IMG/VR virus record: IMGVR_UViG_3300028920_000027
Location: 32,001-96,000 of that record
Direction: 5' to 3' (one strand)
Source of the DNA: a virus
DNA: 64,000 nucleotides
Positions 45,387 through 60,456 of the stretch are shown in pieces. Numbering within the stretch: position 1 is the first letter of the stretch; each line of letters begins with the position of its first letter. Below the pieces are notes generated by a model. The model made no database searches. It was not told where the DNA came from and worked only from the letters and a program-made list of their open reading frames with translations. The position numbers and the translations under genes were made by a program.

Positions 45387-46934
45387 TTACCAGCCCTGAC
45401 GGCTCTTTGAAAGCGAAGGCTTCTCGGCGACGAGCTGTGGCGATGGGCTCTCCGCAGGCGCGGCCCACTGAACCCCGTCCCCGAAGCTCGGTGTCTCTGC
45501 CGAAGCATTGAGAGGAGACTGCTCAGGAACGTAGAGGATGCCGCTGCCGCTGCCGCTGCCGCTGCCGCTGCCGCTGCCATTCCCCACGAACGAAGAAACC
45601 GTTGCATCACGCGCCGCATTGCTGAGCTGCACGCTTCCCAAGTTCTGAAAGTCGGCCAGGGCCTGGAAATCAGCACAGACCAAACCCATGCCCCGAGAAG
45701 CAAAGTGCCGTGCTGAGTTCCGATAGCCCGCGCCCACACTGTAGGCCGCCCCCGACACATAGTTCTGCCTCAGGTTGGTTGCCATAGCAGCCAGACCATC
45801 GTGACCTGCTACCTGATCAGAGACTTCGCGCAGAAGCTCTGATGCCGTGTCGAAGTTACCTCGGGAGGCTTCCTCTTCAGCCTTGCCTTGCGCCCGCACG
45901 ATCTTGGCAAGCCCCACGATCTCTTGCAGGTCCGCGGGGATCTCCTTGGCCACCTCGTCAGGCTTAACGAACCGCACCTGGCACGTGGCCTCAACGTTGT
46001 GAGTGCTGGTTGTGCCGTGCTGATCCAGCATCGCGTAGGTTGTGACCACCTTAAAGGCGTTGACGTCACGAGGGAATGCCTGCTTCTGCTCTTTCAGCTC
46101 GATCTCCAGCACGAGATGACGGTTCTCCTCCGCCAACATCTCGGGGATCTTGAGAGTGACCTGTCCGATCTCATCCTCGACGTCGACATCGCTCAGCACG
46201 TCCCGAATGCGATGCCCATTCAAGGGCTCGATCGAGACCTCGATGCTCGTCGCGTAAGTCGAGAGGAGTCCACCCAACTCGGCGCCGAACGCTGCCAGCG
46301 CGGCGTCAGGCTCCTGAACGTAGGCATAGTTCCCTTTTCCCGTGCGTGCAAACTCGGTCAGGAAGTCTTGGTCACATCCGGTCCAGGCATCGTTGCCCGC
46401 ACCATAGCCAAACGCGCTCACCGTCACGTTGCCACGTTGCTCGGACAACATCCGGAGGATAGCAAGGCTATCCTTGACACCCACCGTCGGCTGCCCGTCA
46501 GTGAACATGATGACGCGAGACCGGTAGCTTGGTGGCAAGTCGAGCTGAGTCACCAACGCCAAGCTCCGAACCATACCTTCACAGAAGTTGGTGCCACCCA
46601 TTGGTGCCAACTGGTTGATGGCCTTGACCAGCTGATCCCGAATCTGGCTCAAAGGCCCGGGTTCGACCCGAACATGGACATTGTTCTCGAAGACAATGAG
46701 CCCGGACACATCGTCGTCTTTCAGGTGCTCGACGAGCTTGAGGGCACTCTTCTTGGCGTACTCCAGCTTAGCTCCCCGCATCGAACCAGACACGTCGATG
46801 ACGGGCAGAACTGCGAGAAGGGGGCGGGTCTCGACCCAATCGACCTCGGGAGCGCTGAGGGTAAGGACGAGGTGGTCTACATTGGACTGGGTATGATCAA
46901 AATTGGGGGATGCGCAACGCGCCTGAATCTGCAT
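45387..46934 (-). CDS. vWA-domain protein (YfbK/Ca-activated chloride channel-like family)
   Basis: MIDAS DVSGS, GGTNF, MFTDGQPT, GKGNY. Confidence 0.85.
   Translation of the reverse strand: MQIQARCASPNFDHTQSNVDHLVLTLSAPEVDWVETRPLLAVLPVIDVSGSMRGAKLEYAKKSALKLVEHLKDDDVSGLIVFENNVHVRVEPGPLSQIRDQLVKAINQLAPMGGTNFCEGMVRSLALVTQLDLPPSYRSRVIMFTDGQPTVGVKDSLAILRMLSEQRGNVTVSAFGYGAGNDAWTGCDQDFLTEFARTGKGNYAYVQEPDAALAAFGAELGGLLSTYATSIEVSIEPLNGHRIRDVLSDVDVEDEIGQVTLKIPEMLAEENRHLVLEIELKEQKQAFPRDVNAFKVVTTYAMLDQHGTTSTHNVEATCQVRFVKPDEVAKEIPADLQEIVGLAKIVRAQGKAEEEASRGNFDTASELLREVSDQVAGHDGLAAMATNLRQNYVSGAAYSVGAGYRNSARHFASRGMGLVCADFQALADFQNLGSVQLSNAARDATVSSFVGNGSGSGSGSGSGSGILYVPEQSPLNASAETPSFGDGVQWAAPAESPSPQLVAEKPSLSKSRQGW
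45540..45578. repeat. Hexamer microsatellite (GCCGCT)6 encoding (GS)n
   Basis: gccgct repeated six times plus gcc. Confidence 0.9.
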
Positions 46935-47165
46935 GATAAATCTCCGTGCAAACAATCGAGTGGTCGCCTTCGACGCGGGCTTGGACAGAGCCCCAGAATC
47001 TCTGGCAAAACAGTTCGAGTGTCCTTACGGCCACCCCAAAACCTTGCGGCGCGGGCAACCGCGACAGAGAGCCAATCCTTCAGGGACGCAATGCCCTCCG
47101 CGTTCCGTACTACACCAACTATCCGGCCAAAGCCACGAAATTCGTTCGATGCCCTGTCTCAAGTC

Positions 47166-47471
47166 ATGGGCACGCAACGTCGCCATTCATCGCAACGCCT
47201 GCGCATCCGCAGTTCAACACCACCGCCGAAACGCGACACGCTGATCCCCTGCCCAGCGTGCGGCTCCAAGGGGGAGCAAATCTACGAGGACCACCGCGGA
47301 AGGTACCGCCATCGCGAATGCCCCTGGTGCGACGGCAAAGGTTTCACCGACTTTCAGACCATCTCGATGTTCTGCCGTTGGCAGCGCATCCTCCAGCACA
47401 ACTGGGCAACGGGAAGGTGTGGCATCAAGAAGAGGACGCCTCTACCACGACCCCCACCGCCGAAGAAATGA
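47166..47471 (+). CDS. Small protein with DnaJ-type CxxCxGxG zinc motifs (101 aa)
   Basis: CPACGSKG and CPWCDGKG; corresponds to the 3' end of the long shadow ORF 45888-47471. Confidence 0.65.
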   Translation: MGTQRRHSSQRLRIRSSTPPPKRDTLIPCPACGSKGEQIYEDHRGRYRHRECPWCDGKGFTDFQTISMFCRWQRILQHNWATGRCGIKKRTPLPRPPPPKK

Positions 47472-47670
47472 CCGTGCATCGCGCGTGGACAACCCCACCG
47501 CCCCGGGTCAGGTTGAACTTGAACCCTGGTGTGAGTAAGTATGCTGGGCGTTGACTGAGCCATTCCACATAGCCCTCCACTTCCCCATTCGGATCTGGGT
47601 CACCCAGAAGCTCCCCCAGCATCGTCCAGTACTGGAACTCCTCAGGCAACAGGTCCCCCGTCGCCGGCAT
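47425..47670 (-). CDS. Hypothetical protein (81 aa)
   Basis: MPATGDLLPEEFQYW... has protein-like composition. Confidence 0.4.
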   Translation of the reverse strand: MPATGDLLPEEFQYWTMLGELLGDPDPNGEVEGYVEWLSQRPAYLLTPGFKFNLTRGGGVVHARCTVISSAVGVVVEASSS

Positions 47671-47788
47671 AGCTAACCGACGATTGGGGAAGTTGCAGGG
47701 GTTGAGGCGAGAGTGCTCGGTGACGAATCGGAAGCGGGCACGGGCGCGAGAGTCCATGCCCTTAACTTACACCACCACCAGCACTTAG

Positions 47789-48370
47789 CTACCCGGCTTG
47801 GAGGAAGGGTCTCCACTCGTCGGGTGCCTTTTCGAGATCGATGTGAGGCGAATGCATCGGCAAGATCGCAGGTCGGACCGGCACCCTCAGAAGCTCCATT
47901 CCCGCCTGTTCTGGCGTGCGATTGTCCTTGCGAGAGTTGCAGGGATAGCATGCCATCACGATGTTCTCCCACACGGTCTTCCCGCCTTGCGACCGAGGGA
48001 GTACGTGGTCGTAGTTAAGCTGACTCAAGGGTAACTTCTCACCGCAGTAGCAGCACCTGAAGCCATCCCGAAGAGCCACGTTAATCTTCGAGAACTTGAC
48101 CCCTGATTTGGTCATGCTCACCGGGCGTCGCAGAACAGCAACGGCGGGTGCCTTGATGGTCAAACTCTCGGTGTCCGTTCCAACAACTTGACGAAGGGCG
48201 CGTCGCAGCTCTGGAAAGCTCGATAGCGTCTGGCGCCCGATGACAGCCAACACCTCATCATACTGAGCCAGCACTTCGATGGACCCCTTGAACATGGCGG
48301 CAACAGCGTCCTGCCACGTGATGATGTCATGGGGCTTCCAGGCTTGGTTCAAAACGAGTGTACGGTACAT
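47789..48370 (-). CDS. HNH endonuclease (McrA-like)
   Basis: LVLN, RDGFRCCYCG, DHVLPRSQGG, WENIVMACYPCNSRK. Confidence 0.92.
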   Translation of the reverse strand: MYRTLVLNQAWKPHDIITWQDAVAAMFKGSIEVLAQYDEVLAVIGRQTLSSFPELRRALRQVVGTDTESLTIKAPAVAVLRRPVSMTKSGVKFSKINVALRDGFRCCYCGEKLPLSQLNYDHVLPRSQGGKTVWENIVMACYPCNSRKDNRTPEQAGMELLRVPVRPAILPMHSPHIDLEKAPDEWRPFLQAG

Positions 48371-48432
48371 GATGCTATTCTCCTATCTCTAACAGCTTGA
48401 CAGGGCAAATTCTTCTTGTGGTCCCGGGGGTT

Positions 48433-48794
48433 ATGCTTGAGGACTGGATTGCCGAAAACCTCGGAAAGGCCCTGCTGATAGGTATGGGAGCCACGATCCT
48501 GATAGCCATCCTGGCCTTCTACCTAGCACCATCATCACCATCGTAGGCGGGGGCCTGGCGCTGGCCCTCGGCATGGTTTTCTACCGAGCTTTGGCCATCA
48601 GCTGGGGAGTGGTCAAGGGCCATCACACACCGGTAGATAAGGGCCATCACACGGAAGAGGACCATCCAGGCGACGACTTTCTGACCGGCATCGATGCCTA
48701 CCTCAACGGGATACTGCTGACGCCAACCTCACCGAGGCAGAAGGCGCCCACACCTTTACACCACAGAACCCAGAAGCACACATCGTACACATGA
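48433..48794 (+). pseudogene. Frameshifted small membrane protein
   Basis: MLEDWIAENLGKALLIGMGATILIAILAFYLAP continues in the -1 frame as IITIVGGGLALALGMVFYR...; break at gcaccatc (48526-48533). Confidence 0.6.
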
Positions 48795-48892
48795 ACGTGG
48801 ACAAAAAGGGTACCGACTGGGAGGTCGAATCTCCGCGGCCGACCCACCAGTCATCGCCGACGAGCTGGGAGCGGCTACGCGAAGACGACTGA
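48791..48892 (+). CDS. Micro-ORF ending SWERLREDD (33 aa)
   Basis: ATGA overlap with the upstream stop; shares the WERL tail with other ORFs. Confidence 0.45.
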   Translation: MNVDKKGTDWEVESPRPTHQSSPTSWERLREDD

Positions 48893-48955
48893 AAGAGGTG
48901 GTAATTCTTGGGGTGTGGGCGTGAAACTACTTTTCGGCCTGCCTAGACGAGCCCC

Positions 48956-49867
48956 ATGAGAATCCTGATCGTCGAGGATAACCCCCAAGAGCGCGAACTG
49001 TTGCGCTATTTGCTGGAAGATCGCTTCCAGAATGAGGCGAAATTCCGAGAAGCCGCCAACTTGGAGCTTGCTCTCAAGTACCTGGCGTCGGACACCATCG
49101 ACGTTGTTGTGCTGGACCTCTCGCTACCCGACAGCGCCGGGCGCGAAACCTTCAACAAGCTGCATGAGGCACACCCCACCATCCCCATCGTGGTGATGAC
49201 AAACAACAAAGATCGCACACTCGCGATCGACATGATCCAGCACGGGGCAGCCGACTACATAGTCAAGAACTTCACCGACGAAGAGGAGCTGTTCCGGAGG
49301 ATCTTGTTTGCCGTCGAAAAGCACCAGACCACAATCCGAACTACCTCCAAGCGGGCAAACAGCATCCACGCCTTGGACCGGGCCCGCGCCAAAATGCAAC
49401 GAGCTCACCAAAGTGGTCAACACCAACTTGCTCTAGATGGGACCGTCGAGACCTCACAGGCGGTGGCAGCCCTTGCCCGTTCAATATTTGAGGGAATGCA
49501 GGATGTCACCCAGAGTGTCCAAAAGCTCTCATTGCAATCCGAGGCCATGGGCAAGACTGTCGACACCCTCGACCAGGAACTCCTCCGTGGATACTCGGGG
49601 CGCCCCTCGATGCGGTCCCAGGTCGACGTCATCGACACGCGGCTGACCAACCTCGAAGAGGAAGTTGGCGACGTCAAGAACTCAGTTGAAAACGACCGGC
49701 AGAGCGCCGTCGAGATCCAGCGGTTTCAGATTCAAGAAAAGCTGAGCGCACGGACCAAGGTCATCCTGGCCATCATCGGTGTAGTCGGCACCATCGCGAC
49801 AGGGGTAGTTACTTGGGCAGTGACAGTCGCTTCCGGGGGGACAGCCACAACAATTGAGGGGAAGTAG
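48956..49867 (+). CDS. Response regulator: REC domain, coiled coil, C-terminal TM helix
   Basis: ILIVEDN, VVLDLSLPD (phospho-Asp), VMT, DYIVK; tail VILAIIGVVGTIATGVVTWAVTV. Confidence 0.88.
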   Translation: MRILIVEDNPQERELLRYLLEDRFQNEAKFREAANLELALKYLASDTIDVVVLDLSLPDSAGRETFNKLHEAHPTIPIVVMTNNKDRTLAIDMIQHGAADYIVKNFTDEEELFRRILFAVEKHQTTIRTTSKRANSIHALDRARAKMQRAHQSGQHQLALDGTVETSQAVAALARSIFEGMQDVTQSVQKLSLQSEAMGKTVDTLDQELLRGYSGRPSMRSQVDVIDTRLTNLEEEVGDVKNSVENDRQSAVEIQRFQIQEKLSARTKVILAIIGVVGTIATGVVTWAVTVASGGTATTIEGK

Positions 49868-49876
49868 GACAATGAC

Positions 49877-50950
49877 ATGCACAAGCCTTGCTCGAGTACC
49901 ACTGCCTACTATCTCTGCCAGCCTGCCTTTCACAACTCTCCCATAGGCCAGGCCGTCCTCAACATCGATGGGTCCTTCGTCGAGGTCAACCAAGCATTCT
50001 GTACCCTCCTTAGGCGAACCCGAGAAAACGTCATCGCTCGAGGGCATGACGAGCTGCTGCACCCCGACGAGACCCTGACCCTCGGTAAGGTAGCTGACCG
50101 CATTCGGATGCGACGCTCCTGTCAGACCGAAGCGCGCTATGCCCGCGGTGATGCAAACATCATGCATGCGCTGCTCAGCGTATCGGGGATCTTCCAGGCC
50201 AACCTGCTTCAGCACATCGTCATCCAGCTGCAAGACATCACTGAGCTGAAGCGCCTTCAAGAAGACCTCCAGCAGAACGCCGCCGACCTGGAGCAGTTCG
50301 CGTACATTGCCTCCCACGACCTTCGCGAGCCCCTTGTCACCATGGCCGGGTTTGCCTCCCTCCTCCAGAAGAAGTGCAGTGGTGAACTCGAAGAGAAGGG
50401 TCGGCACTGGGTCGAAGAGATCCTCAACGGTACCAAGCAGATGGAACGGAAGATCGACGATCTGCTCGCCTTCAGCCGAGCCAGTCGAATCGATCCCCAA
50501 GGTGAGTTCCCCCTGGGCGCCGCCGTCGAGGAAGCACGGCGTGCACTGGTAGGAGCCATCACTCGAACCAACGCCAGCATCATCCTCGACCACCAGCTCC
50601 CCCTCGTGCAAGGTGACCGGTCGATGGTGGCCCAGGTGTTCCAAAATCTATTCTCGAATTCCATCAAGTACAAAAGCTCCAAGGAGCCAGTGATCCATGT
50701 GTCAGCCAAACGATGCAGCGAAGGCTGGGTCGTGTCGGTATCTGACAACGGCATTGGGTTCGACATGAGGCATGCCAACCGCATTTTCGGAGTCTTTCAG
50801 CGCCTCTACACAATCGACCAATACCCCGGGACAGGAATCGGTCTCGCCATCACCAAGAAGATCATCGAGCGCCATGGGGGTCGCATCTGGCCCGAAAGCG
50901 AACCTGACAAGGGAACCACCTTCCACTTCATCCTGCGAGCCTCACAATGA
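49877..50950 (+). CDS. Cytoplasmic PAS-HisKA-HATPase histidine kinase
   Basis: FHNSPIG...VNQAFC...HPDE (PAS), SHDLREPL (H box), NSIKY, DNGIGF, GTGIGL. Confidence 0.93.
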   Translation: MHKPCSSTTAYYLCQPAFHNSPIGQAVLNIDGSFVEVNQAFCTLLRRTRENVIARGHDELLHPDETLTLGKVADRIRMRRSCQTEARYARGDANIMHALLSVSGIFQANLLQHIVIQLQDITELKRLQEDLQQNAADLEQFAYIASHDLREPLVTMAGFASLLQKKCSGELEEKGRHWVEEILNGTKQMERKIDDLLAFSRASRIDPQGEFPLGAAVEEARRALVGAITRTNASIILDHQLPLVQGDRSMVAQVFQNLFSNSIKYKSSKEPVIHVSAKRCSEGWVVSVSDNGIGFDMRHANRIFGVFQRLYTIDQYPGTGIGLAITKKIIERHGGRIWPESEPDKGTTFHFILRASQ

Positions 50951-51396
50951 GTCGTTGCCTCAACATCCTGCTAGCCGAAGACAACAGGCACGATGCCGAA
51001 CTGATCACGGAGGCTTTCGCTGATAGCGAAATCTGCCACAACATCCAGGTTGTAGCCGACGGCGAGGCGGCTCTCATCCACCTCAGGAACCGAACCCCTG
51101 ACCTGCTGTTCCTTGACCTAAACCTCCCCAAGATGGGGGGTCTCGACGTTCTGCGCTCCGTGCGCAGAACCCCCAACCTTGAACACGTCCTGGTTCTCAT
51201 TCTCACGAACTCGACTTCTGACGATGATGTGTATGCCGCATATCGAGCAGGCGCCAACGCCTACATCCGCAAGCCTCTTGGCTTCGACAGCCTCCTGACC
51301 GTCGTCAAAAGCACGACCGCCTTCTGGTTCCGGGTCGCCGTCATCCCGGGAAGGCCGGCTCCTCGCATCGATTCTGGGCCGCCCTCGGCGGTCTAG
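50947..51396 (+). CDS. Single-domain response regulator (Rcp1-like)
   Basis: ILLAEDN, PDLLFLDLNLPKMGG, LTNS, GANAYIRKP. Confidence 0.93.
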   Translation: MSRCLNILLAEDNRHDAELITEAFADSEICHNIQVVADGEAALIHLRNRTPDLLFLDLNLPKMGGLDVLRSVRRTPNLEHVLVLILTNSTSDDDVYAAYRAGANAYIRKPLGFDSLLTVVKSTTAFWFRVAVIPGRPAPRIDSGPPSAV

Positions 51397-51471
51397 CCCC
51401 CTTGGTTCAGAAGACCCTGCCGCTATGCGAATCGCTAAGCCCTCATAATCCTTTTCTGTAACGGATTTGGC

Positions 51472-51807
51472 ATGGGCACCACCACCAAGAAAGTTGCCGC
51501 GCGTTTCAAGGAGCGCATGGCCAGTGCCTCAGGCGACCGTCTGATGCGCCCCCTTTCAGATGCCATCGACGATCTGGTGGAAGCCAAAAAGAAAGCCGAA
51601 AAGGCACTTCAAGCCCTGCGTCGCCACACAGAGAGTGTCGTCAAGAGCGAAGACTTCCAAGCTCGTGTCAAAGGGCTCGACCGGGAGGCCCCCCAGCAAA
51701 TGATCGGCTACATGAGGGAGCACCTGGAAACTGCCAAAAAAGGGATCGAGAGCTTGGCCTCCGAGTATGACGATGCCGCCATCCGCCTCAAGCGCATGGG
51801 AATCTGA
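51472..51807 (+). CDS. Helical protein with N-terminal KKVAARF motif (111 aa)
   Basis: ORF with late-type motif 13 nt upstream. Confidence 0.75.
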   Translation: MGTTTKKVAARFKERMASASGDRLMRPLSDAIDDLVEAKKKAEKALQALRRHTESVVKSEDFQARVKGLDREAPQQMIGYMREHLETAKKGIESLASEYDDAAIRLKRMGI

Positions 51808-52073
51808 TGGATCCAGTTGCTCGACGAGTTGCCAAACGCTTCCGAGACCAACGGGGCCCCAGCAAAGGCACGTTGATAGATCGCATCGTGGTATACGTGC
51901 GTGAGACCACCGGGCTCAGTCGGGGCATCGCAGAAGGCATCGCCAAAACTCTAGTTCGGAGCGGACGGAACATCGACCAACTCGCCGTGCAGAAGGGGTG
52001 GCCCCTTGATGGAGGCCAGCTCATGGGACCGCGGGGCGCCGTCACGTTGGACGAACTACGAGCCCTAGTCTGA
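51807..52073 (+). CDS. Small protein with N-terminal RRVAKRF motif (88 aa)
   Basis: TGATG stop/start overlap. Confidence 0.75.
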   Translation: MDPVARRVAKRFRDQRGPSKGTLIDRIVVYVRETTGLSRGIAEGIAKTLVRSGRNIDQLAVQKGWPLDGGQLMGPRGAVTLDELRALV

Positions 52074-52201
52074 TCTGGCCGGCTTTCTCTGTCACTGCTC
52101 TGGGGCCACTCTAGTACTGCACTACCCTGACCGCGCGACCACACCCATCACAGACAACTTTCACCTGGGTACCCGGGACAATGACCAACCAGCCCAGCGC
52201 G

Positions 52202-52882
52202 TCAGTGATAGTCGTACTTGACCTTCAAATTGTCCCAAACCTTACGCAGTTCGAGGATGCTCATCCCGTTGACCTTGGACAGGTTCTCCTGAAGCCATAT
52301 GTTGAACAACTTGGCACCCTTGGCCACTTCTCGCTTACCGCCAGCTGGTGTGTAAAGGGTGTCCTGAGTGAAGCTTCCTCCGTCAGGCCTCCCCATGATG
52401 GCCACGCTCTTGACGCCCCAATCCGTAGGTTTGGACTCGATGACCATGTAGTCCCCGTTGTCGTTGGGACGAGTCTTGAGGGTGATCTTGGTGAGCCCCC
52501 CTGGCTCGACATCGACCCCTCGCGCCTGTGAACGGTTGACCTCGATCTCGCCAGGATAGCTCGCAAGCAGGTCCCGGAAGAAAGCCATCACTTGGTCAAA
52601 GGTCCGGTAATGAACCAACGCCTGTGACGTGCTGTCAAACCACTGGTCCCAGTCACCCTTGTAGGCGTAACTCGGACTGACGGTGGCTTCATCGACCTTC
52701 TTGCCCCGCTTGCCCGCGTTCGTCAGGTCCGTGACCCGAAAGTGGTCTCGGTACCGATGAACACGAACGTTCCCCATCTCGACGGTGCGGCCCACGCCGA
52801 TGCCTGCAAGGGCTTCCTTGTAGCGACGGGCAACTCTGGTCGCCATGGACCTGTGGGCGGCAATACGGGCTTTGATGCTCAT
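52202..52882 (-). CDS. Hypothetical protein with N-terminal RVARRY motif
   Basis: Start refined to ATG 52882, 13 nt after CTTGTG. Confidence 0.75.
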   Translation of the reverse strand: MSIKARIAAHRSMATRVARRYKEALAGIGVGRTVEMGNVRVHRYRDHFRVTDLTNAGKRGKKVDEATVSPSYAYKGDWDQWFDSTSQALVHYRTFDQVMAFFRDLLASYPGEIEVNRSQARGVDVEPGGLTKITLKTRPNDNGDYMVIESKPTDWGVKSVAIMGRPDGGSFTQDTLYTPAGGKREVAKGAKLFNIWLQENLSKVNGMSILELRKVWDNLKVKYDYH

Positions 52883-52908
52883 GCGTAGGCTGGCCCACAA
52901 GTAGAACT

Positions 52909-53322
52909 TCAGGCCCCCATGACGTAGCGAAAGATCTCGGTACCGCTCATCACTTCTTCCGACTTGACTTCTAGTTCAGGCTCAATGACCTGGGGCTCAC
53001 TTGAGAAGATGAGGACCGGCTTAGGGAGCAAGACCTTGCCACTGCGAAGATCAAGGATGAGCTGGCGACGACCTTGGAAAGTAGCGAGCTGTCCCCGGAA
53101 GGCTCGCAAGGGAGCCTGGGAGCCCCTTGTAGCTGCCCGCACCAGCGCCCGAGGACACAACCACCTCCGCGTGGGACCCCTTGTATCAGCCTCTGTAAAG
53201 CCCAGTATCGCCCCATCCACACTATCCCGCGGGATGATCATCGCGCCCGGCTCCACCTTGGCATCTTGTACCGCCTTGAGCCAGGCATGTGGATCCTCGA
53301 AAGTGAGCACATTTCCAGGCAT
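52909..53322 (-). CDS. Hypothetical protein (137 aa)
   Basis: GGTGTAAAGT 9 nt upstream of ATG. Confidence 0.7.
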   Translation of the reverse strand: MPGNVLTFEDPHAWLKAVQDAKVEPGAMIIPRDSVDGAILGFTEADTRGPTRRWLCPRALVRAATRGSQAPLRAFRGQLATFQGRRQLILDLRSGKVLLPKPVLIFSSEPQVIEPELEVKSEEVMSGTEIFRYVMGA

Positions 53323-53356
53323 TCCAAGCTCACTTTACACCACGATCCAGGGCTCG

Positions 53357-53716
53357 TCAGGCCAACCGCTCCCAGAGCGTCGGGATCGAGGCCCGTTTCC
53401 GGTTCGCAGCTTCCTTGATCCGTTTCCGGTTCGCAGCTTCCTCGATCAGCCCCTCGATGAACTCGTTACGGGCCGCCTGACCCCGGAAGGTGTTCCGAAC
53501 GGTCACGTCACGGTGGTGGGCAAAAACCTCGATCTGGACCTTGATCGTGACCCGAGCCACATCACCACTGTTGTGGAAAATATAGGTGATCTCGCGACGA
53601 GAGATGTTGTCACTGGGGGTCATCTTTTCGTAGCCCAGCGAAATGGCAGCAATCATGGCCTCGGAGAACTCGTCGACCGACGTGGCCGTGAACTCCCTGT
53701 GAAGGGTTAGAGGCAT
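53357..53716 (-). CDS. Hypothetical protein with EAANRKR duplication and PTLWERLA tail
   Basis: Operon-coupled; 24-bp internal duplication. Confidence 0.65.
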   Translation of the reverse strand: MPLTLHREFTATSVDEFSEAMIAAISLGYEKMTPSDNISRREITYIFHNSGDVARVTIKVQIEVFAHHRDVTVRNTFRGQAARNEFIEGLIEEAANRKRIKEAANRKRASIPTLWERLA

Positions 53717-54078
53717 CGGAGGCGCTCCCACACGTTGGGTTGTTTTTCAGCCATCTCCCGACGGCGACGTTGAATGTCGTTGGCCTGAACCTGCAAGCTC
53801 TCCAGGAGACCTACACTCGAATGAATCCGCGCCGGGCTCCTAAGCAGAACTTCCATTGGAAGCAAAACGTGGAAGAAGTGGTTCGATCGCCTTGTGTCCC
53901 AAAGTGTGTACCGAATCGCCCGCAGACGTTGATCGTCAGAAGGTACCACCTGGTACCCCTCCAGAGCAAGAGCGAGAATCATGACGTCTCGAAAGTCAGC
54001 CATGCTGCCCGCCTTAAAGGTTTCATCACAGCAGGCCCGGAGCTTATACTCGTGCTTGAAGTCCTCTCGGGTCAGCAT
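53707..54078 (-). CDS. Hypothetical protein with PNVWERL tail
   Basis: GGTGTAGAGT 20 nt upstream of ATG 54078. Confidence 0.65.
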   Translation of the reverse strand: MLTREDFKHEYKLRACCDETFKAGSMADFRDVMILALALEGYQVVPSDDQRLRAIRYTLWDTRRSNHFFHVLLPMEVLLRSPARIHSSVGLLESLQVQANDIQRRRREMAEKQPNVWERLRCL

Positions 54079-54209
54079 GTCTGTTGGAGTCCCCCCGTAC
54101 TCTACACCAATCAACCAGTACAGTCGTAGAGAGCAGCCGGTGGTGGCCGCCGCATCTTGTGCATCGGCACCCTTGAACCTTGAACCCGGGCATCAGGGGA
54201 GAGCAGCCG

Positions 54210-54692
54210 CTACTCGATTTGGGAGGCCAGCCGCCGCAAGTGGGCGGCTAGATCCTGGCGCGAAGGTCGCTCGGGTCCTTGGCACGAAGCCAAAATATGG
54301 CCCAGCTCCTCCCGAAGCTCGTGGGGGTTCGTGATGCGAGCCGCCTTCGACCTCATGTACCGGTCCAGTTGTCGTTTCAGGCTCTTCTCAGCGCTCATCC
54401 GATCTCGGATGTTGGCCATCATCTCGGCGGAGGGCGGCCCCTCTTCACGACGTTGGTGGTCCGCGATGTTGGCGTGGAAGTGGAGCCAGTTCTTGGCGAG
54501 CATCAGCACTCCGTAGAGTCCAGGATCCCCCTCACGTTGCTTCTGATTCGCGATCTTCCCCATGGCCTCCTTGACGGCCATGATTGAGGTGAGGTCGGTC
54601 CCGATGGTGCGGGACATCTCTTCCAGAGCGATGTTGGCCCCCCGGCTGAGGGCCGTGCCCAGGAACTTTTCGGCTACCTGTACGGCGTTCAT
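54210..54692 (-). CDS. Helical protein with N-terminal QVAEKF motif (160 aa)
   Basis: CTTATG 13 nt upstream of ATG. Confidence 0.75.
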   Translation of the reverse strand: MNAVQVAEKFLGTALSRGANIALEEMSRTIGTDLTSIMAVKEAMGKIANQKQREGDPGLYGVLMLAKNWLHFHANIADHQRREEGPPSAEMMANIRDRMSAEKSLKRQLDRYMRSKAARITNPHELREELGHILASCQGPERPSRQDLAAHLRRLASQIE

Positions 54693-55043
54693 AGTCGAGG
54701 GTGCTCATAAGCAGATTCTGGTGAGCTGCGGTCTGATCGTGTACACTAAAGCCCTGTGCCCGTGAAGCCCCCAGCAGCCCCCGTGAAGACACCCAAGCCG
54801 GTGACGCCGGCAAGGAGGTCTTCGCGATGCATTACAAGCGCAGGCGCCGCCGTAGGGGCGGCATCAAGGGCTGCTGCCTCATATGCAGCTTGGCGACCAC
54901 GGACGGTCGCCGTAACGGCCGCAAGCTGACTCTGCAAGAGGAGCGTTCGCTCCAAGACATGGTGGAGCAGCTCGAAGGCGTCGAGGTCGTGTGTCAGCCT
55001 CGAACCTCATAGAGCGACTCATGTGAGCACTCTACGTCGGTTC

Positions 55044-55131
55044 TGGCGGAAGGTGGAGGAGTCGAACCCCTGCGCCTCTCGACACACCCCGGTGTTCGAG
55101 ACCGGTTGCCCACCACTGAGCGGCACCTTCC
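55044..55131 (-). tRNA. tRNA-Ser(CGA)
   Basis: Anticodon arm CCGGT-CTCGAAC-ACCGG, long variable arm, CCA. Confidence 0.9.
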
Positions 55132-55168
55132 AAGGGGAAAGACAGGACAGATTCTCTGGAGTGGAAAT

Positions 55169-55239
55169 TGGAGCCTCCGCGCGGAATCGAACCGCGACTA
55201 GCTGAGTACGAAACAGCCGTCTGACCATTCAGCAGAGGC
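55169..55239 (-). tRNA. tRNA-Thr(CGT)
   Basis: GCTGT-TTCGTAC-TCAGC, GCC acceptor start, CCA. Confidence 0.75.
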
Positions 55240-55241
55240 AA

Positions 55242-55317
55242 GGGTCCCCACCGGAGGAGTCGAACCTCGTCAACGGCCTTCGGAGGGCCGTGCTCGGAAT
55301 CCGCCGAGGCGGTGGGG
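55242..55317 (-). tRNA. tRNA-Arg(CCG), atypical D-arm
   Basis: CGGCC-CTCCGAA-GGCCG; 5-bp D-stem. Confidence 0.8.
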
Positions 55318-55377
55318 TTATAAACTGTCCTTCCAAAGAGGAGCTGGATACCCCGGGTAGAGGCAGCTGGAGCGGTG

Positions 55378-55452
55378 TGGTACCCCCGTGAGGATTCGAA
55401 CCCCTTGCACCGGACTAGAAAACCGGCTCCCCTTCCATCGGGTAACGGAGGC
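55378..55452 (-). tRNA. tRNA-Arg(TCT)
   Basis: CCGGT-TTTCTAG-TCCGG, CCA. Confidence 0.8.
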
Positions 55453-55455
55453 AAA

Positions 55456-55539
55456 CGGAGGAAGGTAGAGGACTCGAACCCCTGCGCTTTCACGCACCCC
55501 GGCTTTCAAAGCCAGTTCGCCGCCTTGGCGGTACCTTCC
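55456..55539 (-). tRNA. tRNA-Ser(TGA)
   Basis: CTGGC-TTTGAAA-GCCGG, long variable arm. Confidence 0.88.
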
Positions 55540-55543
55540 AGGT

Positions 55544-55630
55544 TGGCGGAAGACGGAGGAATCGAACCCCTCACCCTTGCGGGTGCAGCCGCTTTCCAGG
55601 CGGACCAGGCGCCTTGCCTGTTCATCTTCC
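55544..55630 (-). tRNA. tRNA-Ser(GGA)
   Basis: CCGC-CTGGAAA-GCGG, long variable arm, CCA. Confidence 0.9.
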
Positions 55631-55633
55631 AGA

Positions 55634-55710
55634 TGGTCTGGGTGAGAGGACTTGAACCTCCAACAACCGGCACCCAAAGCCGGTCCTCTACCAGGTTGAG
55701 GTACACCCAG
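55634..55710 (-). tRNA. tRNA-Pro(TGG)
   Basis: CCGGC-TTTGGGT-GCCGG, CCA. Confidence 0.92.
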
Positions 55711-55713
55711 ATG

Positions 55714-55790
55714 TGGCTCCCCAGGCAGGACTCGAACCTGCAACCAGTCGGTTAACAGCCGACCGCTCTGCCAAATTGAGCTACCGGGGA
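55714..55790 (-). tRNA. tRNA-Asn(GTT)
   Basis: GTCGG-CTGTTAA-CCGAC, CCA. Confidence 0.93.
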
Positions 55791-55796
55791 ATGAAT

Positions 55797-55941
55797 TGGC
55801 CTCCCGCCGGGACTTGAACCCGGTAACGGAGCCCGTTCGAGCTGACTCGGGGCCGCACCGTGGGCCCACGGTACAGCCTAACCCTTACCCTCTCGAATGG
55901 CGTCCCCGTCAGAGCCGGCTCTTGTGAGCTGCCATGGCAGG
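55797..55941 (-). ncRNA. About 145-nt tRNA-like structured RNA (T-arm + CCA, no canonical anticodon arm)
   Basis: 3' end CCGGG-TTCAAGT-CCCGG...GGCCA; internal long hairpins. Confidence 0.55.
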
Positions 55942-55945
55942 GTAG

Positions 55946-56019
55946 TAGGGGCCGGGGGAATCGAACCCACCCTTCGTCTGCTTGTAAAACAGCTGCCGTC
56001 ACCAGACAGCACGACCCCC
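55946..56019 (-). tRNA. tRNA-Val(TAC)
   Basis: CTGT-TTTACAA-GCAG; T1:T72 mismatch. Confidence 0.75.
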
Positions 56020-56024
56020 AGAGG

Positions 56025-56126
56025 CTAGTAGCCCCCGAAGTGCAGCCCGATCAACACGACCGTCACGATGAACGGGATGAGTGAGAAACCGGCAATGAAG
56101 CCTTGCAGCCTGAGGTGGTAGTCCAT
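56025..56126 (-). CDS. 33-aa single-TM micro-protein
   Basis: MDYHLRLQGFIAGFSLIPFIVTVVLIGLHFGGY with GAGG RBS. Confidence 0.5.
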   Translation of the reverse strand: MDYHLRLQGFIAGFSLIPFIVTVVLIGLHFGGY

Positions 56127-56173
56127 GCCTCAAGAGTAAAGGATTCGAGCGTCTGTGACAAGGGTGTGACAGG

Positions 56174-56644
56174 CTATTTACGGCTGGGTGTCAGTGACCG
56201 AACCGTCGATCCGCAAGCGCCGAGAAGTGTAGGGGAAACGTCGCCGATCTCGACAGTAGTGCGGTCGTTGTAGACCCGCTCGAAGGTGTCCTTGTCGGCC
56301 TCGGTCAAGAGTTCCAAGAGGTCCACGTTGGCGGAGCCCAACTCGCCCTCTTGTACAGCAAGGTCCGCATAAACCTTGACGTTGCCGTTGCCTACCTCGT
56401 ACCTGATGTCGGCTGTCCACCCCTTGGCCTCGATCTCGACTCGGGCAGGCCCGAGTCGCCCACTTCTCACGGGGCGGGCCTTGATGTTGAAGCGGCCCCA
56501 CCCGCCGCTGGCGCGTGACCAGTACTGCGCCGTCGCCTCAGCAACCTCGTCCAGCCACAGAGTCTGGGCCTGCGCCAGGTTCGGGAGCGACCCCGCCGTC
56601 TTCCGGATCTGGTACTGCTGGACAACGCGCTGCTCAGTGGTCAT
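56174..56644 (-). CDS. Hypothetical protein with N-terminal RVVQQY...RKTAG motif
   Basis: Start refined to ATG 56644, 13 nt after CTTGTG. Confidence 0.7.
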   Translation of the reverse strand: MTTEQRVVQQYQIRKTAGSLPNLAQAQTLWLDEVAEATAQYWSRASGGWGRFNIKARPVRSGRLGPARVEIEAKGWTADIRYEVGNGNVKVYADLAVQEGELGSANVDLLELLTEADKDTFERVYNDRTTVEIGDVSPTLLGACGSTVRSLTPSRK

Positions 56645-56660
56645 GTCATAGTCAGCGCAC

Positions 56661-56691
<31 letters not shown>

Positions 56692-56693
56692 GT

Positions 56694-56765
56694 CGGTGCT
56701 GGCGAGTGGACTCGAACCACAGCCGCAGGACATATGAAATCCCCGTACCGCCTTGGTACACCAGC
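56694..56765 (-). tRNA. tRNA-Met or Ile2 (CAT), elongator type
   Basis: GGGAT-TTCATAT-GTCCT; paired G1-C72. Confidence 0.75.
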
Positions 56766-56962
56766 AAAATGGTGACCTCACTTGGTGTGAGGTCCAGTGT
56801 GAATTACTGGGATCGTATCAACCACCCCATGGGCGCACTTGGCGACTACGGTACCGTCAATACCGAGAGTATGACCTCGCAGATCAATACCGACAGCAGA
56901 TTGAGTACTGGCAATCTGCGGGCACCCACTGGTACACTAGTTCGTTCTATTTGCCCGAAAAA

Positions 56963-57038
56963 TGGTGACCCTGGGGGGAGTTGAACCCACCTCTTCCCGG
57001 GTGAAAACCGGGGCGCCTAACCGTTAGCAGACAGGGCC
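56963..57038 (-). tRNA. tRNA-Glu(TTC)
   Basis: CCCGG-TTTTCAC-CCGGG, CCA. Confidence 0.88.
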
Positions 57039-57040
57039 GT

Positions 57041-57113
57041 TGGAGCCAGCGGGGGGAGTCGAACCCGCCGTCGTCACCCATACCAAGGGTGCGCCTCGCC
57101 GTGAGTCGCTGGC
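57041..57113 (-). tRNA. tRNA-Thr(GGT)
   Basis: CACCC-TTGGTAT-GGGTG, CCA. Confidence 0.85.
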
Positions 57114-57171
57114 AAACGGTGTACAAGGTTTGAAGATCCGAAGCTGCACCAAGGCTGGAACCCTGACATCC

Positions 57172-57247
57172 TAGTGACCCCACCGGGACTTGAACCCGGA
57201 TTTCCTGAGTGAGAGTCAGGTTGCCTCGCCAGTTAGCAGATGGGGCC
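57172..57247 (-). tRNA. tRNA-Glu(CTC)
   Basis: CCTGA-CTCTCAC-TCAGG. Confidence 0.9.
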
Positions 57248-57351
57248 AGTTTGCGACGCCCGAGCAAGCTCGGGGCCGCCCACACCCCCTGGTGATCAAG
57301 CAGGGGGCTTGTGTGACGCAGACCATTTGGTTTACTCCCGTCTGCGAGGGG

Positions 57352-57426
57352 TGGAGCGAGTGACGGGAATCGAACCCGCCAGGACTGCGTTGGCAACGCA
57401 GTTCTCCACCTTGGAGAATCACTCGC
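57352..57426 (-). tRNA. tRNA-Gly(GCC)
   Basis: CTGCG-TTGCCAA-CGCAG, CCA. Confidence 0.9.
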
Positions 57427-57482
57427 AGAAGTTCTCGGCAGCCGTTACTGCTACCACGGTCGCCTGTTCGAATTCTTTTAAA

Positions 57483-57689
57483 TCATGCTGTCGGGTCGGA
57501 GGGTAGACGAGCCGCTTCCGATTCCAAGCCCACCGCCAACAAGCTCAGCGCGTCGCGCAGGGCCCTATCCAGACGGTCGTCGTAGGTGATTTCCCAGGTG
57601 CCCTCTTGAGTCAAAATCTCGATGTGACTCATCGTGGACCGGTTCGACACGCGAAAGGTGTTGCCCCGAAAGGTGCAGTAGCCATACAT
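57483..57689 (-). CDS. Small hypothetical protein (68 aa), probably leaderless
   Basis: GGTGTATAGT 5 nt upstream of ATG 57689. Confidence 0.5.
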   Translation of the reverse strand: MYGYCTFRGNTFRVSNRSTMSHIEILTQEGTWEITYDDRLDRALRDALSLLAVGLESEAARLPSDPTA

Positions 57690-57706
57690 GAGAAACTATA
57701 CACCGT

Positions 57707-57776
57707 TGGGGTGTCGCGGGGAATCGAACCCCTCAACTCGGGTCACAGCCGAGTTCGCTCCCAGAGCTACGACACC
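57707..57776 (-). tRNA. tRNA-His(GTG)
   Basis: CTCGG-CTGTGAC-CCGAG, G-1:C73, short D-loop, CCA. Confidence 0.88.
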
Positions 57777-57822
57777 ATTCGCACCAGCCGGTAGACGTGT
57801 TCTCGACGAATCGAGAATCGCT

Positions 57823-57910
57823 CAGCGGAAGGCGAGGGAATCGAACCCCTTAGCCCTTACGGACTACACTGGGTAGCGACCAGCTCCAGCACCATGCTGG
57901 ATCACCTTCC
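57823..57910 (-). tRNA. tRNA-Ser(GCT), copy 1
   Basis: GCTGG-TCGCTAC-CCAGT, long variable arm. Confidence 0.82.
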
Positions 57911-57946
57911 AAGAGTCATTTGCTGTCTAACGGTGTAAAAAACTCC

Positions 57947-58219
57947 ATGGCACTCAGTAACAAGAGGCGACAACACGCCCTGCTGTCAGGCGAAGCATGG
58001 GCCAAGGGAATGCTCAAGATCTTCATCGAGGACCCGAGTTACTTCCCGAAAGGTGCCGAGTCACTCTACGACTTTGTACCCAGAGCGGCTCGATCACACC
58101 TAGCCATGAATTGCACCCACAAACCCAGTCAAGAAGAAGAAGACCTGGCTCAAAAAGGTGCAGCCGATCTGATCCGGCTGGCTCTCGACTTCGCCGAAAA
58201 GGTGCCGGAGAATCCTTGA
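57947..58219 (+). CDS. Hypothetical protein antisense to the tRNA array (90 aa)
   Basis: GGTGTAAAAA 5 nt upstream of ATG 57947. Confidence 0.65.
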   Translation: MALSNKRRQHALLSGEAWAKGMLKIFIEDPSYFPKGAESLYDFVPRAARSHLAMNCTHKPSQEEEDLAQKGAADLIRLALDFAEKVPENP

Positions 58220-58292
58220 GCAGAGAGCAGGGGTCTCGATCCCCAGGGCTTCTCGACCCCGAATCGCTTTCCAAGCGGACCCGGCACGATGA

Positions 58293-58308
58293 TGTCTCAC
58301 GTGAAATA
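58293..58308. promoter_or_regulatory. parS-like palindrome 1
   Basis: TGTCTCACGTGAAATA, 14/16 match to TGTTTCACGTGAAACA. Confidence 0.5.
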
Positions 58309-58309
58309 T

Positions 58310-58385
58310 CGGCCCCCACCGGAGGAGTCGAACCTCGTCAGCCGGTTTAGGAAACCAGCGCCCGGAATCCGCCGAGGCGGTGGGG
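58310..58385 (-). tRNA. tRNA-Arg(CCT), atypical D-arm
   Basis: CTGGT-TTCCTAA-ACCGG; body nearly identical to Arg(CCG). Confidence 0.8.
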
Positions 58386-58388
58386 GAG

Positions 58389-58474
58389 TTGCGGAAGGCG
58401 GAGGAATCGAACCCCATGGCCGTAAGACCACTTCGGGTAGCAGCCGAGCCCAGCACCTTGCTGGTTCGCCTTCC
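58389..58474 (-). tRNA. tRNA-Ser(GCT), copy 2
   Basis: CTCGG-CTGCTAC-CCGAA, long variable arm. Confidence 0.85.
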
Positions 58475-58530
58475 AAGGGTTTCGGACGGGCCCGAAACCA
58501 AGAATCTGCTTGTGCCCTCGCTGAGGCACC

Positions 58531-58863
58531 ATGTACTCCTACGATCGACGTACCGCCTCCCGTCACGGCCCCGTGGGGGAGATTCTGATGAAGCGCTGGA
58601 ACATTCTCCACGACCTCGACCGCGAGCTGCAAGACGCGAGTCAGGAGTATGACGTGGCGGCCTCCTACAAGGGCAAGCCGGGGGAGAAGGGCGCCGAAAA
58701 GGTGATGGAAGCCATCAAGAAGGTCCGTGAGGCCATCTCCAACCTCGCCGACAGTGGCAAGGACTTCGACAAACTCCTCGAAGCCGAGACCAAGTTCGTC
58801 AAACAGCATGGCTCACCTGGCGACTACGCTCAGGCCCAGCGCGACGCGATCTACCCGCTGTAG
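58531..58863 (+). CDS. Helical protein with N-terminal YDRRTAS motif (110 aa)
   Basis: ATCTGCTTGTG 16 nt upstream; GAGG RBS. Confidence 0.75.
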   Translation: MYSYDRRTASRHGPVGEILMKRWNILHDLDRELQDASQEYDVAASYKGKPGEKGAEKVMEAIKKVREAISNLADSGKDFDKLLEAETKFVKQHGSPGDYAQAQRDAIYPL

Positions 58864-58934
58864 TGGAATCGGGGGGACTCGAACCCCCATCTCTGGCTTG
58901 CGACACCAGCGTCTTCCCGTTGGACGACGACCCC
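58861..58934 (-). tRNA. tRNA-Ala(CGC), copy 1
   Basis: CTGGT-GTCGCAA-GCCAG; G3:U70. Confidence 0.85.
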
Positions 58935-58935
58935 T

Positions 58936-59010
58936 TAGAGCCGGCGAGCGGAATCGAACCGCAACCCTGAGGTTTACAAAACCCCCGCTCCTCCTTGGAG
59001 CTGCACCGGC
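58936..59010 (-). tRNA. tRNA-Thr(TGT)
   Basis: GGGGT-TTTGTAA-ACCTC. Confidence 0.88.
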
Positions 59011-59174
59011 ATTCTCCCGGACCACCCAGAGCCTGCAATGGGGACCGGGGCGACGTCTCGTGCCAGACGCCCTCCTGTATGCAGGAAGGAGGGTCCGAAA
59101 GGTCACGTACATGGTCGCACGCCTTGAAGTAATCAGGTCCCAGGCAGCTACCCCCGGGTTGATAGCTCATGGCG

Positions 59175-59251
59175 TGGTACGGGGCGTGGGGATCGAACCC
59201 ACCAGGAACCTGCTTGTCGAGCAGGTGTGTTCACCAGCTCACTCGCCCCGC
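59175..59251 (-). tRNA. tRNA-Val(GAC)
   Basis: CCTGC-TCGACAA-GCAGG, CCA. Confidence 0.82.
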
Positions 59252-59260
59252 ATCTAGACA

Positions 59261-59276
59261 CATTTCACGTGAAACG
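59261..59276. promoter_or_regulatory. parS-like palindrome 2
   Basis: CATTTCACGTGAAACG, 13/16 match with a perfect core TTTCACGTGAAA. Confidence 0.5.
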
Positions 59277-59323
59277 TTCAGTTGCGTGGTTCAGACAACC
59301 TACCGAAGGCCAACCTGAACCCG

Positions 59324-59395
59324 TGGTGGAACTGCCGGGTAACGCTCCCGGTTACCCTGGTTGCGACCCAGGGTCCCTGCCTTCAGGACAGCCCC
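59324..59395 (-). tRNA. tRNA-Ala(CGC), copy 2, non-canonical T-loop
   Basis: CCTGG-GTCGCAA-CCAGG; G3:U70; T-loop AGCGTTA; CCA. Confidence 0.7.
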
Positions 59396-59424
59396 GAAGA
59401 ACGCCTTCCCAAGGATGAGGGTTG

Positions 59425-59502
59425 TAGTCAGGATGGCCGGAATCGAACCGGCGGTCTCCGCACCCCCAGTGCGGCGCTCTAGCCAAACTGAGCCACACCC
59501 TG
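59425..59502 (-). tRNA. tRNA-Pro(GGG)
   Basis: CCGCA-CTGGGGG-TGCGG. Confidence 0.92.
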
Positions 59503-60088: not shown

Positions 60089-60121
60089 AGGTTCATTGAA
60101 CCATATCTGGGTTCGTAGAGC

Positions 60122-60196
60122 TGGTCGGAGACCCGGGGATCGAACCCGGCGAGTCTTGGTCCCGAACCAAGCGGCACACCCTGCGCCTTGTCTCCG
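60122..60196 (-). tRNA. tRNA-Pro(CGG)
   Basis: CTTGG-TTCGGGA-CCAAG, CCA. Confidence 0.85.
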
Positions 60197-60197
60197 T

Positions 60198-60274
60198 TGG
60201 ACCCCACCGGAGGAGTCGAACCTCGACAACGGGTTTCGTAGACCCGTGCCCGGTAATCCGCCGGGTCAGTGGGG
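60198..60274 (-). tRNA. tRNA-Arg(ACG), atypical D-arm
   Basis: CGGGT-CTACGAA-ACCCG; 5-bp D-stem; CCA. Confidence 0.82.
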
Positions 60275-60291
60275 ATGGACTTCAGTTGGAG

Positions 60292-60375: not shown

Positions 60376-60379
60376 AGAT

Positions 60380-60455: not shown

Positions 60456-60456
60456 G

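Follow-up and report, generated by a model that had tools for sequence, protein, structure and literature searches.

The 64,000-nt stretch of viral DNA analysed here, positions 32,001 to 96,000 of IMG/VR record IMGVR_UViG_3300028920_000027 and referred to below as the window, carries a complete two-component cassette that is a property of the phage and not a host insert, and whose first gene appears to found a new family of tail-anchored receivers, absent from the cellular genomes searched. The cassette consists of three plus-strand genes: RR1, a putatively tail-anchored response regulator of 303 amino acids (aa) and the founder of the REC-helical-transmembrane family (48956..49867); HK, a soluble PAS-HisKA-HATPase histidine kinase of 357 aa (49877..50950); and RR2, a stand-alone Rcp-type receiver of 149 aa (50947..51396). 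Two-component systems usually count as devices with which cells sense, and most of them end in transcription factors, whereas an entire lineage of huge phages maintains one of its own that has no transcriptional output and in which the main receiver is, by prediction, tail-anchored. The reading that we prefer, and to which we give about as much credence as doubt, is that the phage owns a self-contained two-component system of the branched type, whose output, delivered by RR1 at the inner membrane of the host, is not transcriptional. Should RR1 prove both to receive the phosphoryl group and to have an effect on the membrane, this would be a new output class for response regulators, and a concrete, testable case of a virus that senses the state of its host and acts on the envelope.

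Gene content and phage ownership

The initial annotation had placed three plus-strand genes amid minus-strand genes and had described their catalytic residues as intact; the open reading frames (ORFs) agree with it exactly, and the kinase boxes as well as the phospho-Asp, Thr and Lys of both receivers could all be located. RR1 and HK are separated by 9 nt, HK and RR2 overlap by 4 nt (ATGA), and the large genes on either side are on the minus strand. In RR1, Pfam recognises Response_reg over residues 3-115 (PF00072, E 6e-24) and no other domain, and the receiver, spanning aa 1-125 (48956..49330), has E7/D8, D54, T82 and K104 at the canonical positions. RR2 matches Response_reg over residues 7-120 (E 9e-23), with E11/D12, D57, T87 and K109 placed canonically as well; both receivers score above the Pfam cut-off. 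HK is a kinase of the HisKA class (PF00512, 49.6 bits against a cut-off of 26.9; PF02518, 92.7 bits against 26.4), in which Pfam places PAS_9 at residues 28-123, HisKA at 138-202 and HATPase_c at 246-355. On the plus strand the PAS subdomain covers 49928-50245, HisKA 50288-50482 (with His147 at 50315-50317) and HATPase_c 50612-50941. The H box (SHDLREPL, containing His147), N box (QNLFSNSIKY), G1 box (DNGIGF), F box (FGVFQRL) and G2 box (GTGIGL) are all present, and the kinase, as read off its sequence, has no hydrophobic segment. Neither Pfam nor NCBIfam finds a DNA-binding domain in RR1 or RR2, and no sigma-70-like promoter was found in 47700-52300. No RNA run that contains the stretch was found either. 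A CACTTGT-like box lies 5' of RR1 in several relatives; with 6 matches in the window against 9 expected it is not enriched there, and this candidate was dropped.

Among the genes of the window, PHROGs identifies a portal, a large terminase, UvsX, a clamp loader, an SbcCD-like nuclease, a ribonucleotide reductase, an NAD ligase and GroEL, and the IMG/VR viral contig that holds the window is 182,335 bp long (CheckV completeness 38%). The nearest deposited portals are those of a 485-kb uncultured phage (51% identity), Tunturiibacter phage Tunturi_5 (38%) and Bacillus phage G (26%). That HK and RR2 are plainly derived from phytochrome-type pairs of bacteria could suggest that the cassette is just a passenger without any role specific to the phage, either an operon taken up from a host not long ago or a chimera of the assembly. 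We hold this to be very improbable. An independent Logan contig of 11,138 nt (depth 51; probable source run, marine sediment) spans 45588-56000 with zero differences and even depth, and bridges the VWA and HNH genes, the cassette with both its junctions, and the first tRNAs. A chimeric insert, which the initial annotation had named as a way in which its proposal could fail, is thus contradicted by a single unbroken contig, and synteny and portal relatives agree. The GC content of the cassette, 0.57-0.59, is similar to that of the remainder of the window, and RR1 is absent from the cellular genomes searched.

The order RR1-HK-RR2 was found in every related locus fetched, with identities to the window of 44-55% for RR1, 37-58% for HK and 42-52% for RR2 (loci L005-L021). 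On five syntenic contigs of IMG/VR the portal shares 68-81% identity with that of the window, and one of the five, IMGVR_UViG_3300037297_000066, is a 100% complete genome of 437,331 bp with terminal repeats, which contains one HATPase_c and two REC domains in total, all of them within the cassette. The HPt domain (PF01627) was found neither in the window contig (G000) nor in this complete relative (G001) nor in a 94%-complete relative (G002). Because the cassette supplies the sole kinase and the sole two receivers of the complete relative, and no HPt accompanies them, it can be considered a complete, private one-kinase two-receiver system, in agreement with the initial claim of a complete and phage-owned cassette; its carriers are a lineage of uncultured phages of about 370-450 kb. 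The term phosphorelay, used in the same annotation, had to be given up: since there is no HPt, and since the helical domain of RR1 contains no invariant His (Spo0B-like folds were not specifically searched), the system is of the branched His-to-Asp type and not a multi-step phosphorelay.

The RR1 family and its predicted topology

A search of 5.8 billion proteins returned more than 100 full-length relatives of RR1 (~300 aa, 40-72% identity), many of them on contigs of 330-476 kb and all from metagenomes. Among 185,579 prokaryotic species genomes (one genome each) there is no full-length relative, just receivers at no more than 44% identity. The output region alone (aa 116-303) gave 28 matches in 1.84 billion representatives, nearly all from the same REC-fused family. 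Beyond the receiver, nothing in RR1 is recognised by Pfam, NCBIfam, PADLOC or a PDB profile search with the family alignment, PADLOC returning just weak receiver-level matches. The deposited phages of INPHARED contain no RR1 relative either; the matches there are to generic receivers, mostly on bacterial contigs filed as phage, and the nearest portal relatives, LR745208 and Tunturi_5, are absent from them. The literature searched, which includes Al-Shayeb 2020 and the jumbo-phage comparison PMC7824862 and is incomplete in coverage, contains no account of a cassette like this one. Two-component genes on phages are not new as such, and PHROGs contains unnamed kinase and receiver families; the novelty lies in a cassette that is complete, shared throughout a lineage of huge phages and without transcriptional output, and in a receiver family that is putatively tail-anchored and absent from the cellular genomes searched.

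Conservation within the family extends well past the phosphorylation site. In 45 receiver sequences D54 and K104 are invariant, and E7, D8 and T82 are kept in at least 90%. A model of RR1 made by AlphaFold2 (AF2) with the family alignment (pLDDT 84) consists of the receiver (1-125), helices at 131-153, 156-211 and 219-261, a loop at 212-218 and a membrane helix at 265-292, while the output region modelled by itself (pLDDT 79) gives one helix that begins at the loop and extends through the membrane segment without a break. The first two helices, H1 (aa 131-153) and H2 (aa 156-211), lie at 49346..49588, are specific to the family and carry the conserved blocks AH-SGEH and TVETT-A-ADLSR-FTELQ. 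Between H2 and H3 in both models comes a conserved hairpin loop, G212-x3-RPSMRSQ (49589..49621), whose G212 is invariant in 113 of 113 sequences, and it is at this membrane-distal loop, not at the membrane helix, that the output region is best conserved. H3, or the stalk (aa 219-264; 49610..49747), is variable in sequence in its membrane-proximal half. The helices 156-211 and 219-261 show a hydrophobic periodicity of 3.5 residues (z = 3.1 against shuffles), and a homodimer prediction from two copies with the family alignment, which scored 0.09, was used neither way. The view of the RR1 output taken in the initial annotation, a coil followed by a membrane helix with no DNA-binding or enzymatic domain, thus survives in part: such domains were not found and the protein does end in a transmembrane helix, but its middle is not a generic coil, consisting of a conserved helical domain peculiar to the family and including a loop that is invariant.

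The hydrophobic helix at residues 269-292 (49760..49831; 24 residues, KD19 2.2) lies within the last 35 residues of RR1, a position kept in 107 members, and is followed by an 11-aa polar tail that runs to 49864. Small residues recur along it in a G/A/T pattern. The net charge of the 12 residues before the helix is positive in 107 of 107 members, with a mean of +2.5 as compared with +0.7 after it, so that by the positive-inside rule the receiver and the helices would be cytoplasmic and RR1 tail-anchored. A helix at 269-292 of 303 residues behind a cytoplasmic N-terminal domain is the arrangement of a tail-anchored protein, for which the insertion is predicted from the sequence. The tail past the helix has a median of 16 residues and varies from 5 to 30 residues across the family.

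The spacer that links the loop to the membrane helix shows little sequence conservation but is quantised in length, with classes of 50 (n=52), 57 (n=14), 61 (n=11), 72 (n=5), 39 (n=4) and 36 (n=5) residues. On a tree built from RR1 residues 1-225 only, with changes assigned by parsimony, the stalk changed length 35 times, ten times by +/-11 residues and four times by +/-7. In 18 of these 35 changes the helical phase is kept within 40 degrees, where 28% would be expected for arbitrary lengths, and this figure is probably an underestimate because the start of the helix could be placed only to within a few residues. The pattern argues for a stalk that is a rigid helix of hendecad character, whose register to the membrane helix matters, and not a floppy tether.

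No known fold could be assigned to the output region in searches of BFVD, of Atlas by shape and of the whole PDB. The best match in BFVD is herpesvirus UL14 (E 0.02), and the Atlas shape search returned only RND-adaptor and MCP hairpins with a TM of 0.5 or less. The top PDB matches are the hairpins of ESCRT-III, PspA and Vipp1, with Z values of 6.9-8.4 that fall within the range of the tool for unrelated helical hairpins (Snf7 8wb7, 8.4 with an rmsd of 3.0 over 89 aligned residues; 5fd9, 7.9; ESCRT-IIIB 9ftl, 7.7; Vipp1 8qhv, 7.2; PspA 4whe, 6.9), and the TM of 0.57 to the PspA cluster in Atlas is within the noise range for helical proteins. These proteins act on membranes, but they are peripheral whereas RR1 is putatively tail-anchored, and they share no sequence signal with it; PspA_IM30 and Snf7 do not occur among the Pfam families listed for RR1 members. 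The likeness, recurrent as it is among the structural matches of a predicted model, is kept as a lead only. A Spo0B/DHp-like, His-carrying role of the RR1 hairpin was also considered and ruled out, since there is no invariant His in it.

A proposed signal path and the place of RR1 in it

The best solved relatives of RR2 are RcpA (1k68, 7e-25) and Rcp1 (1i3c, 5e-23), with other bacteriophytochrome receivers also ranked at the top, while the core of HK matches bacteriophytochrome kinases at 3e-32 and its relatives are named 'bacteriophytochrome'-type kinase by JGI. With these relatives and its 4-nt overlap with a COG4251-type kinase gene, RR2 fits the description of an Rcp-type single-domain receiver. 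The closest solved relatives of the HK core and RR2 are accordingly the Cph1/Rcp1 and bacteriophytochrome pairs (1i3c, 1k68, 8avv, 8uph); pairs of the Cph1/Rcp1 type share with the cassette the order of the genes, in which a small receiver comes after the kinase and its start codon overlaps the kinase stop codon. The phage pair differs from them in that it is phage-encoded, has one PAS only and no GAF/PHY, and is preceded by the gene of a receiver that is predicted to be membrane-anchored. Only PAS-fold families match residues 17-123 of HK and neither GAF nor PHY is found in it, so that the kinase is not a Cph1-type (bacterio)phytochrome, and the initial assignment to a Cph1/Rcp1-type kinase and receiver without these domains holds. 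The PAS domain has no informative solved relative that would give a clue to its ligand (best E 0.005 over 44 residues). Across lineages the sensor region of HK consists of PAS_9, PAS_4, PAS_3, two PAS domains or none at all, with a core that is 55-65% identical, and some relatives, on contigs of up to 120 kb, have kinases of ~250 aa without a sensor domain.

In the signal path that we propose, the soluble PAS kinase would autophosphorylate on His147 in response to an intracellular cue, through a sensor domain that differs among lineages, and would hand the phosphoryl group to two receivers, RR1 and RR2. RR2, as an Rcp-type single-domain receiver, may serve as a diffusible partner or as a phosphate sink. 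RR1 would be inserted tail-first in the inner membrane, with its receiver and the ~140-residue helical domain in the cytoplasm and 5-30 residues outside. Phosphorylation of D54 would alter the packing or the oligomerisation of the RR1 receiver, and the change would travel via the rigid, phase-locked stalk to the membrane helix, to a partner at the G-x3-RPSMRSQ loop, or to both. Receivers with coiled-coil linkers, of the NtrC1, DgcR and PleD type, signal through dimer rearrangement, and by analogy a rearrangement of a helical dimer is a plausible signalling mode for RR1. NtrC1 (1zy2/1ny5), DgcR (6zxb/6zxc) and PleD resemble RR1 in having a receiver followed by long helices, and their receivers match well; they end, however, in AAA+ or GGDEF enzymes, whereas RR1 has a membrane helix there in place of an enzyme. 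The target is probably a step of infection at the level of the membrane, such as the timing of envelope disruption, membrane remodelling or the exclusion of other phages, and the phages thus probably link something that they sense within the host cell to something that happens at its membrane. The data on which this proposal rests are the gene content, the intact motifs, the phage ownership, the family conservation, the topology signals and the quantised stalk; the phosphotransfer partners, the conformational coupling and the physiological target we infer.

Several observations weigh against this proposal. Phosphotransfer to RR1 is an assumption, and by lineage it is RR2, not RR1, that is the classical partner of the kinase. 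The receiver of RR1 is most like the N-terminal control receivers of REC-PAS hybrids, which are inputs and not outputs. The mutual packing of the RR1 helices is uncertain (pTM 0.34-0.50 in AF2, for both the full-length protein and the output region). In one close relative the helical-transmembrane part is deleted and the receiver fused to the kinase, and the membrane part is thus dispensable there. Finally, no membrane or lysis gene is found among the conserved neighbours of the cassette in the loci examined.

The strongest rival explanation takes up the second of these points and places RR1 on the input side: it would be the control receiver of the kinase, as in cellular REC-PAS-HisKA hybrids and the Rec-controlled kinases of the LvrB type, but made as a separate protein and held at the membrane, with RR2 as the sole true output. 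RR1 would then localise or gate the soluble kinase at the membrane, or report the state of the membrane. We regard this as possible, if on the unlikely side. The closest cellular relatives of the RR1 receiver, at no more than 44% identity, are indeed the N-terminal receivers of REC-(PAS)-HisKA-HATPase hybrid kinases (L041, L088, L091), and these hybrids have the same FAYVASHDLQEPL-type H box as the cassette kinase; among solved structures, its receiver is most like those of bacterial REC-PAS-HisKA-HATPase hybrids such as the dual-sensor kinase 6oap, and of Rec-controlled kinases such as Leptospira LvrB (8vc9), and it also matches the NtrC4/NtrX receivers at a Z of 20. The best NCBIfam match of HK is LvrA-type, with LvrB/LvrC among the matches of the RR1 receiver, and in those relatives whose kinases have no sensor the input must come from elsewhere. 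What distinguishes the window and more than 100 relatives from the hybrids is a separate receiver protein with a helical domain and a putative membrane anchor. As a sensor, the extracytoplasmic tail of 5-30 variable residues would be too small, and the best conserved output part is the loop far from the membrane and not the membrane helix. There is, moreover, no second phage kinase, so that RR1 could be phosphorylated only by this one kinase or by the host.

Natural variants of the cassette bear on both explanations. Two clusters more than 10% apart (P0108, P0109) encode receiver and kinase as one protein, with RR1 residues 1-138 joined to kinase residue 1 in what pairwise alignment shows to be a clean in-frame deletion. 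The kinase of the fusion phage is 86% identical to that of locus L007, and since a clean in-frame deletion is seen in so close a relative, the fusion can be regarded as derived and recent, and the helical-transmembrane part as one that can be lost. The product, P0108, has exactly the REC-PAS-HisKA-HATPase architecture of the bacterial hybrids, and the persistence of this form in two clusters favours the input side. A membrane output nevertheless recurs in other forms. In P0112-P0114 the receiver continues into DUF1003 (PF06210), a membrane domain that has yet to be characterised, and the gene occupies the same place ahead of a PAS kinase and RR2 (P0112 corresponds to L011 5001-5969, with a DUF1003 match of 95 bits), and in P0139 the protein is split, a 163-aa receiver gene overlapping by 4 nt a 148-aa gene for the loop, helix and transmembrane part. 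Pfam finds no DUF1003 in the RR1 of the window; the REC-DUF1003 fusion could supply the first functional context for this domain. Together with the 11-residue insertions and deletions of the stalk, the fusion by deletion, the DUF1003 swap and the split form make the family a set of natural experiments. A plausible history, which we infer from these relationships, is that a bacterial operon of a REC-PAS-kinase and an Rcp-type receiver was captured, that the control receiver was split off, and that it gained a helical-transmembrane module of phage type.

One could also speculate that RR1 works on the kinases of the host, as a decoy at the membrane that drains their phosphoryl groups and so silences envelope or stress responses, or as an eavesdropper that reads them. 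The tail anchor would place its receiver beside membrane kinases, this receiver is generic (~40% identity to many host receivers), and RR1 has no enzymatic output; the remaining support for this idea comes from the known behaviour of phosphate-sink receivers. It would leave unexplained the conserved 140-residue helical domain, the invariant loop and the phase-locked stalk. Since, in addition, the phage has its own kinase in strict synteny and no host partner can be named, we find such a role quite improbable. The suggestion of the initial annotation that the cassette rewires host development received no support.

Lysis, membrane remodelling and the neighbourhood of the cassette

The initial annotation had compared RR1 with small holin- or hemolysin-like proteins and had linked it to lysis. 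RR1 would in that case be a holin, antiholin or XhlA-like protein switched by phosphorylation, which would gate lysis as a signal-dependent clock. The resemblance is one of architecture only: a cytoplasmic coil with a single C-terminal transmembrane helix is what RR1 shares with the small phage proteins XhlA, DUF2951 and DUF7201, which also provide the top Atlas feature leads, but these have no receiver, sit in lysis cassettes and show no significant sequence similarity to RR1. The Atlas score of 0.80 for the holin-like leads is at chance level, being attained by one third of shuffled proteins, and XhlA (PF10779) matches 4 of 45 RR1 members with a best E of 0.12, far under the cut-off. The recurrent small residues of the membrane helix are consistent with a role in lysis, as is P0142, a weak stand-alone relative (E 5e-4) that lies 3' of a tail-fibre-like gene. 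Lysis genes are often located after such genes. No lysin gene lies next to the cassette in any locus examined, and lysozyme, amidase and SLT domains (PF00959, PF01510, PF01464) are absent from the 182-kb fragment, an absence that says little because the fragment covers only 38% of the genome. That one lineage does without the transmembrane part would be odd for an essential lysis component. We therefore consider a lysis clock improbable, and the link to lysis drawn initially is unsupported.

It is conceivable that RR1 is, more generally, a phosphorylation-switched, tail-anchored membrane actuator, either a holin/antiholin-like gate or a remodeller in the manner of ESCRT-III and PspA, through which a huge phage would use its own sensor kinase to determine when and how the membrane of its host is opened, remodelled or shut to competing phages. 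We think this unlikely, though worth stating: the cassette would then be the first case in which a two-component system is shown to act on a membrane directly and on behalf of a virus.

The cassette stands among genes that recur with it. A VWA-domain protein of 522 aa with a (GS)n run near its C-terminus is encoded 5' of it (45387-46955, minus strand), and most relatives have the VWA gene at this place as well, accompanied by one or two genes for HNH endonucleases. On the other side lies orf88 (51807..52073, plus strand), a candidate accessory gene without a Pfam match, which has homologues 3' of the cassette in L013, L017 and L020 (40-45% identity by tblastn). There (L017 6553-7304; L020 3720-4372) the orf88 homologue is immediately followed by an extra RR1-like gene that encodes a receiver only, of 153 aa in L017, and orf88 and this gene are possible fourth and fifth members of the module. 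Outside the cassette, about 850 nt past the end of the window, a small ORF contains a third, weak receiver domain (45 bits; G000:C1:96853-97179, minus strand; L003 1477-2163) with Ser at the position of the Thr.

Directly 3' of the cassette region, ARAGORN finds 33 tRNA genes at 55044-62934 on the minus strand, which cover most amino acids; tRNA arrays of such size are typical of huge phages. In three proteins of the window the database match is split around an internal stretch assigned to phrog_9666: the terminase large subunit (1114 aa, 5007-8351, minus strand), the clamp-loader-like protein (924 aa, 17107-19881, minus strand) and the UvsX-like recombinase (28783-30177, minus strand). The family is unnamed, and from their sequence these stretches look like inteins or similar insertions. 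In L009, a 310-kb contig of a more distant phage with the cassette, the neighbouring ORFs (310-2367 and 8532-10490) encode a 685-aa protein with a weak Cas12f1-like TNB match and a 652-aa protein with Transgly (PF00912). Three IMG/VR contigs of 42-186 kb from a different viral group (L022-L024) encode a kinase, an RR2-like receiver and a second receiver, arranged as HK-RR-RR and 29-46% identical, which may be a two-component module that phages acquired independently.

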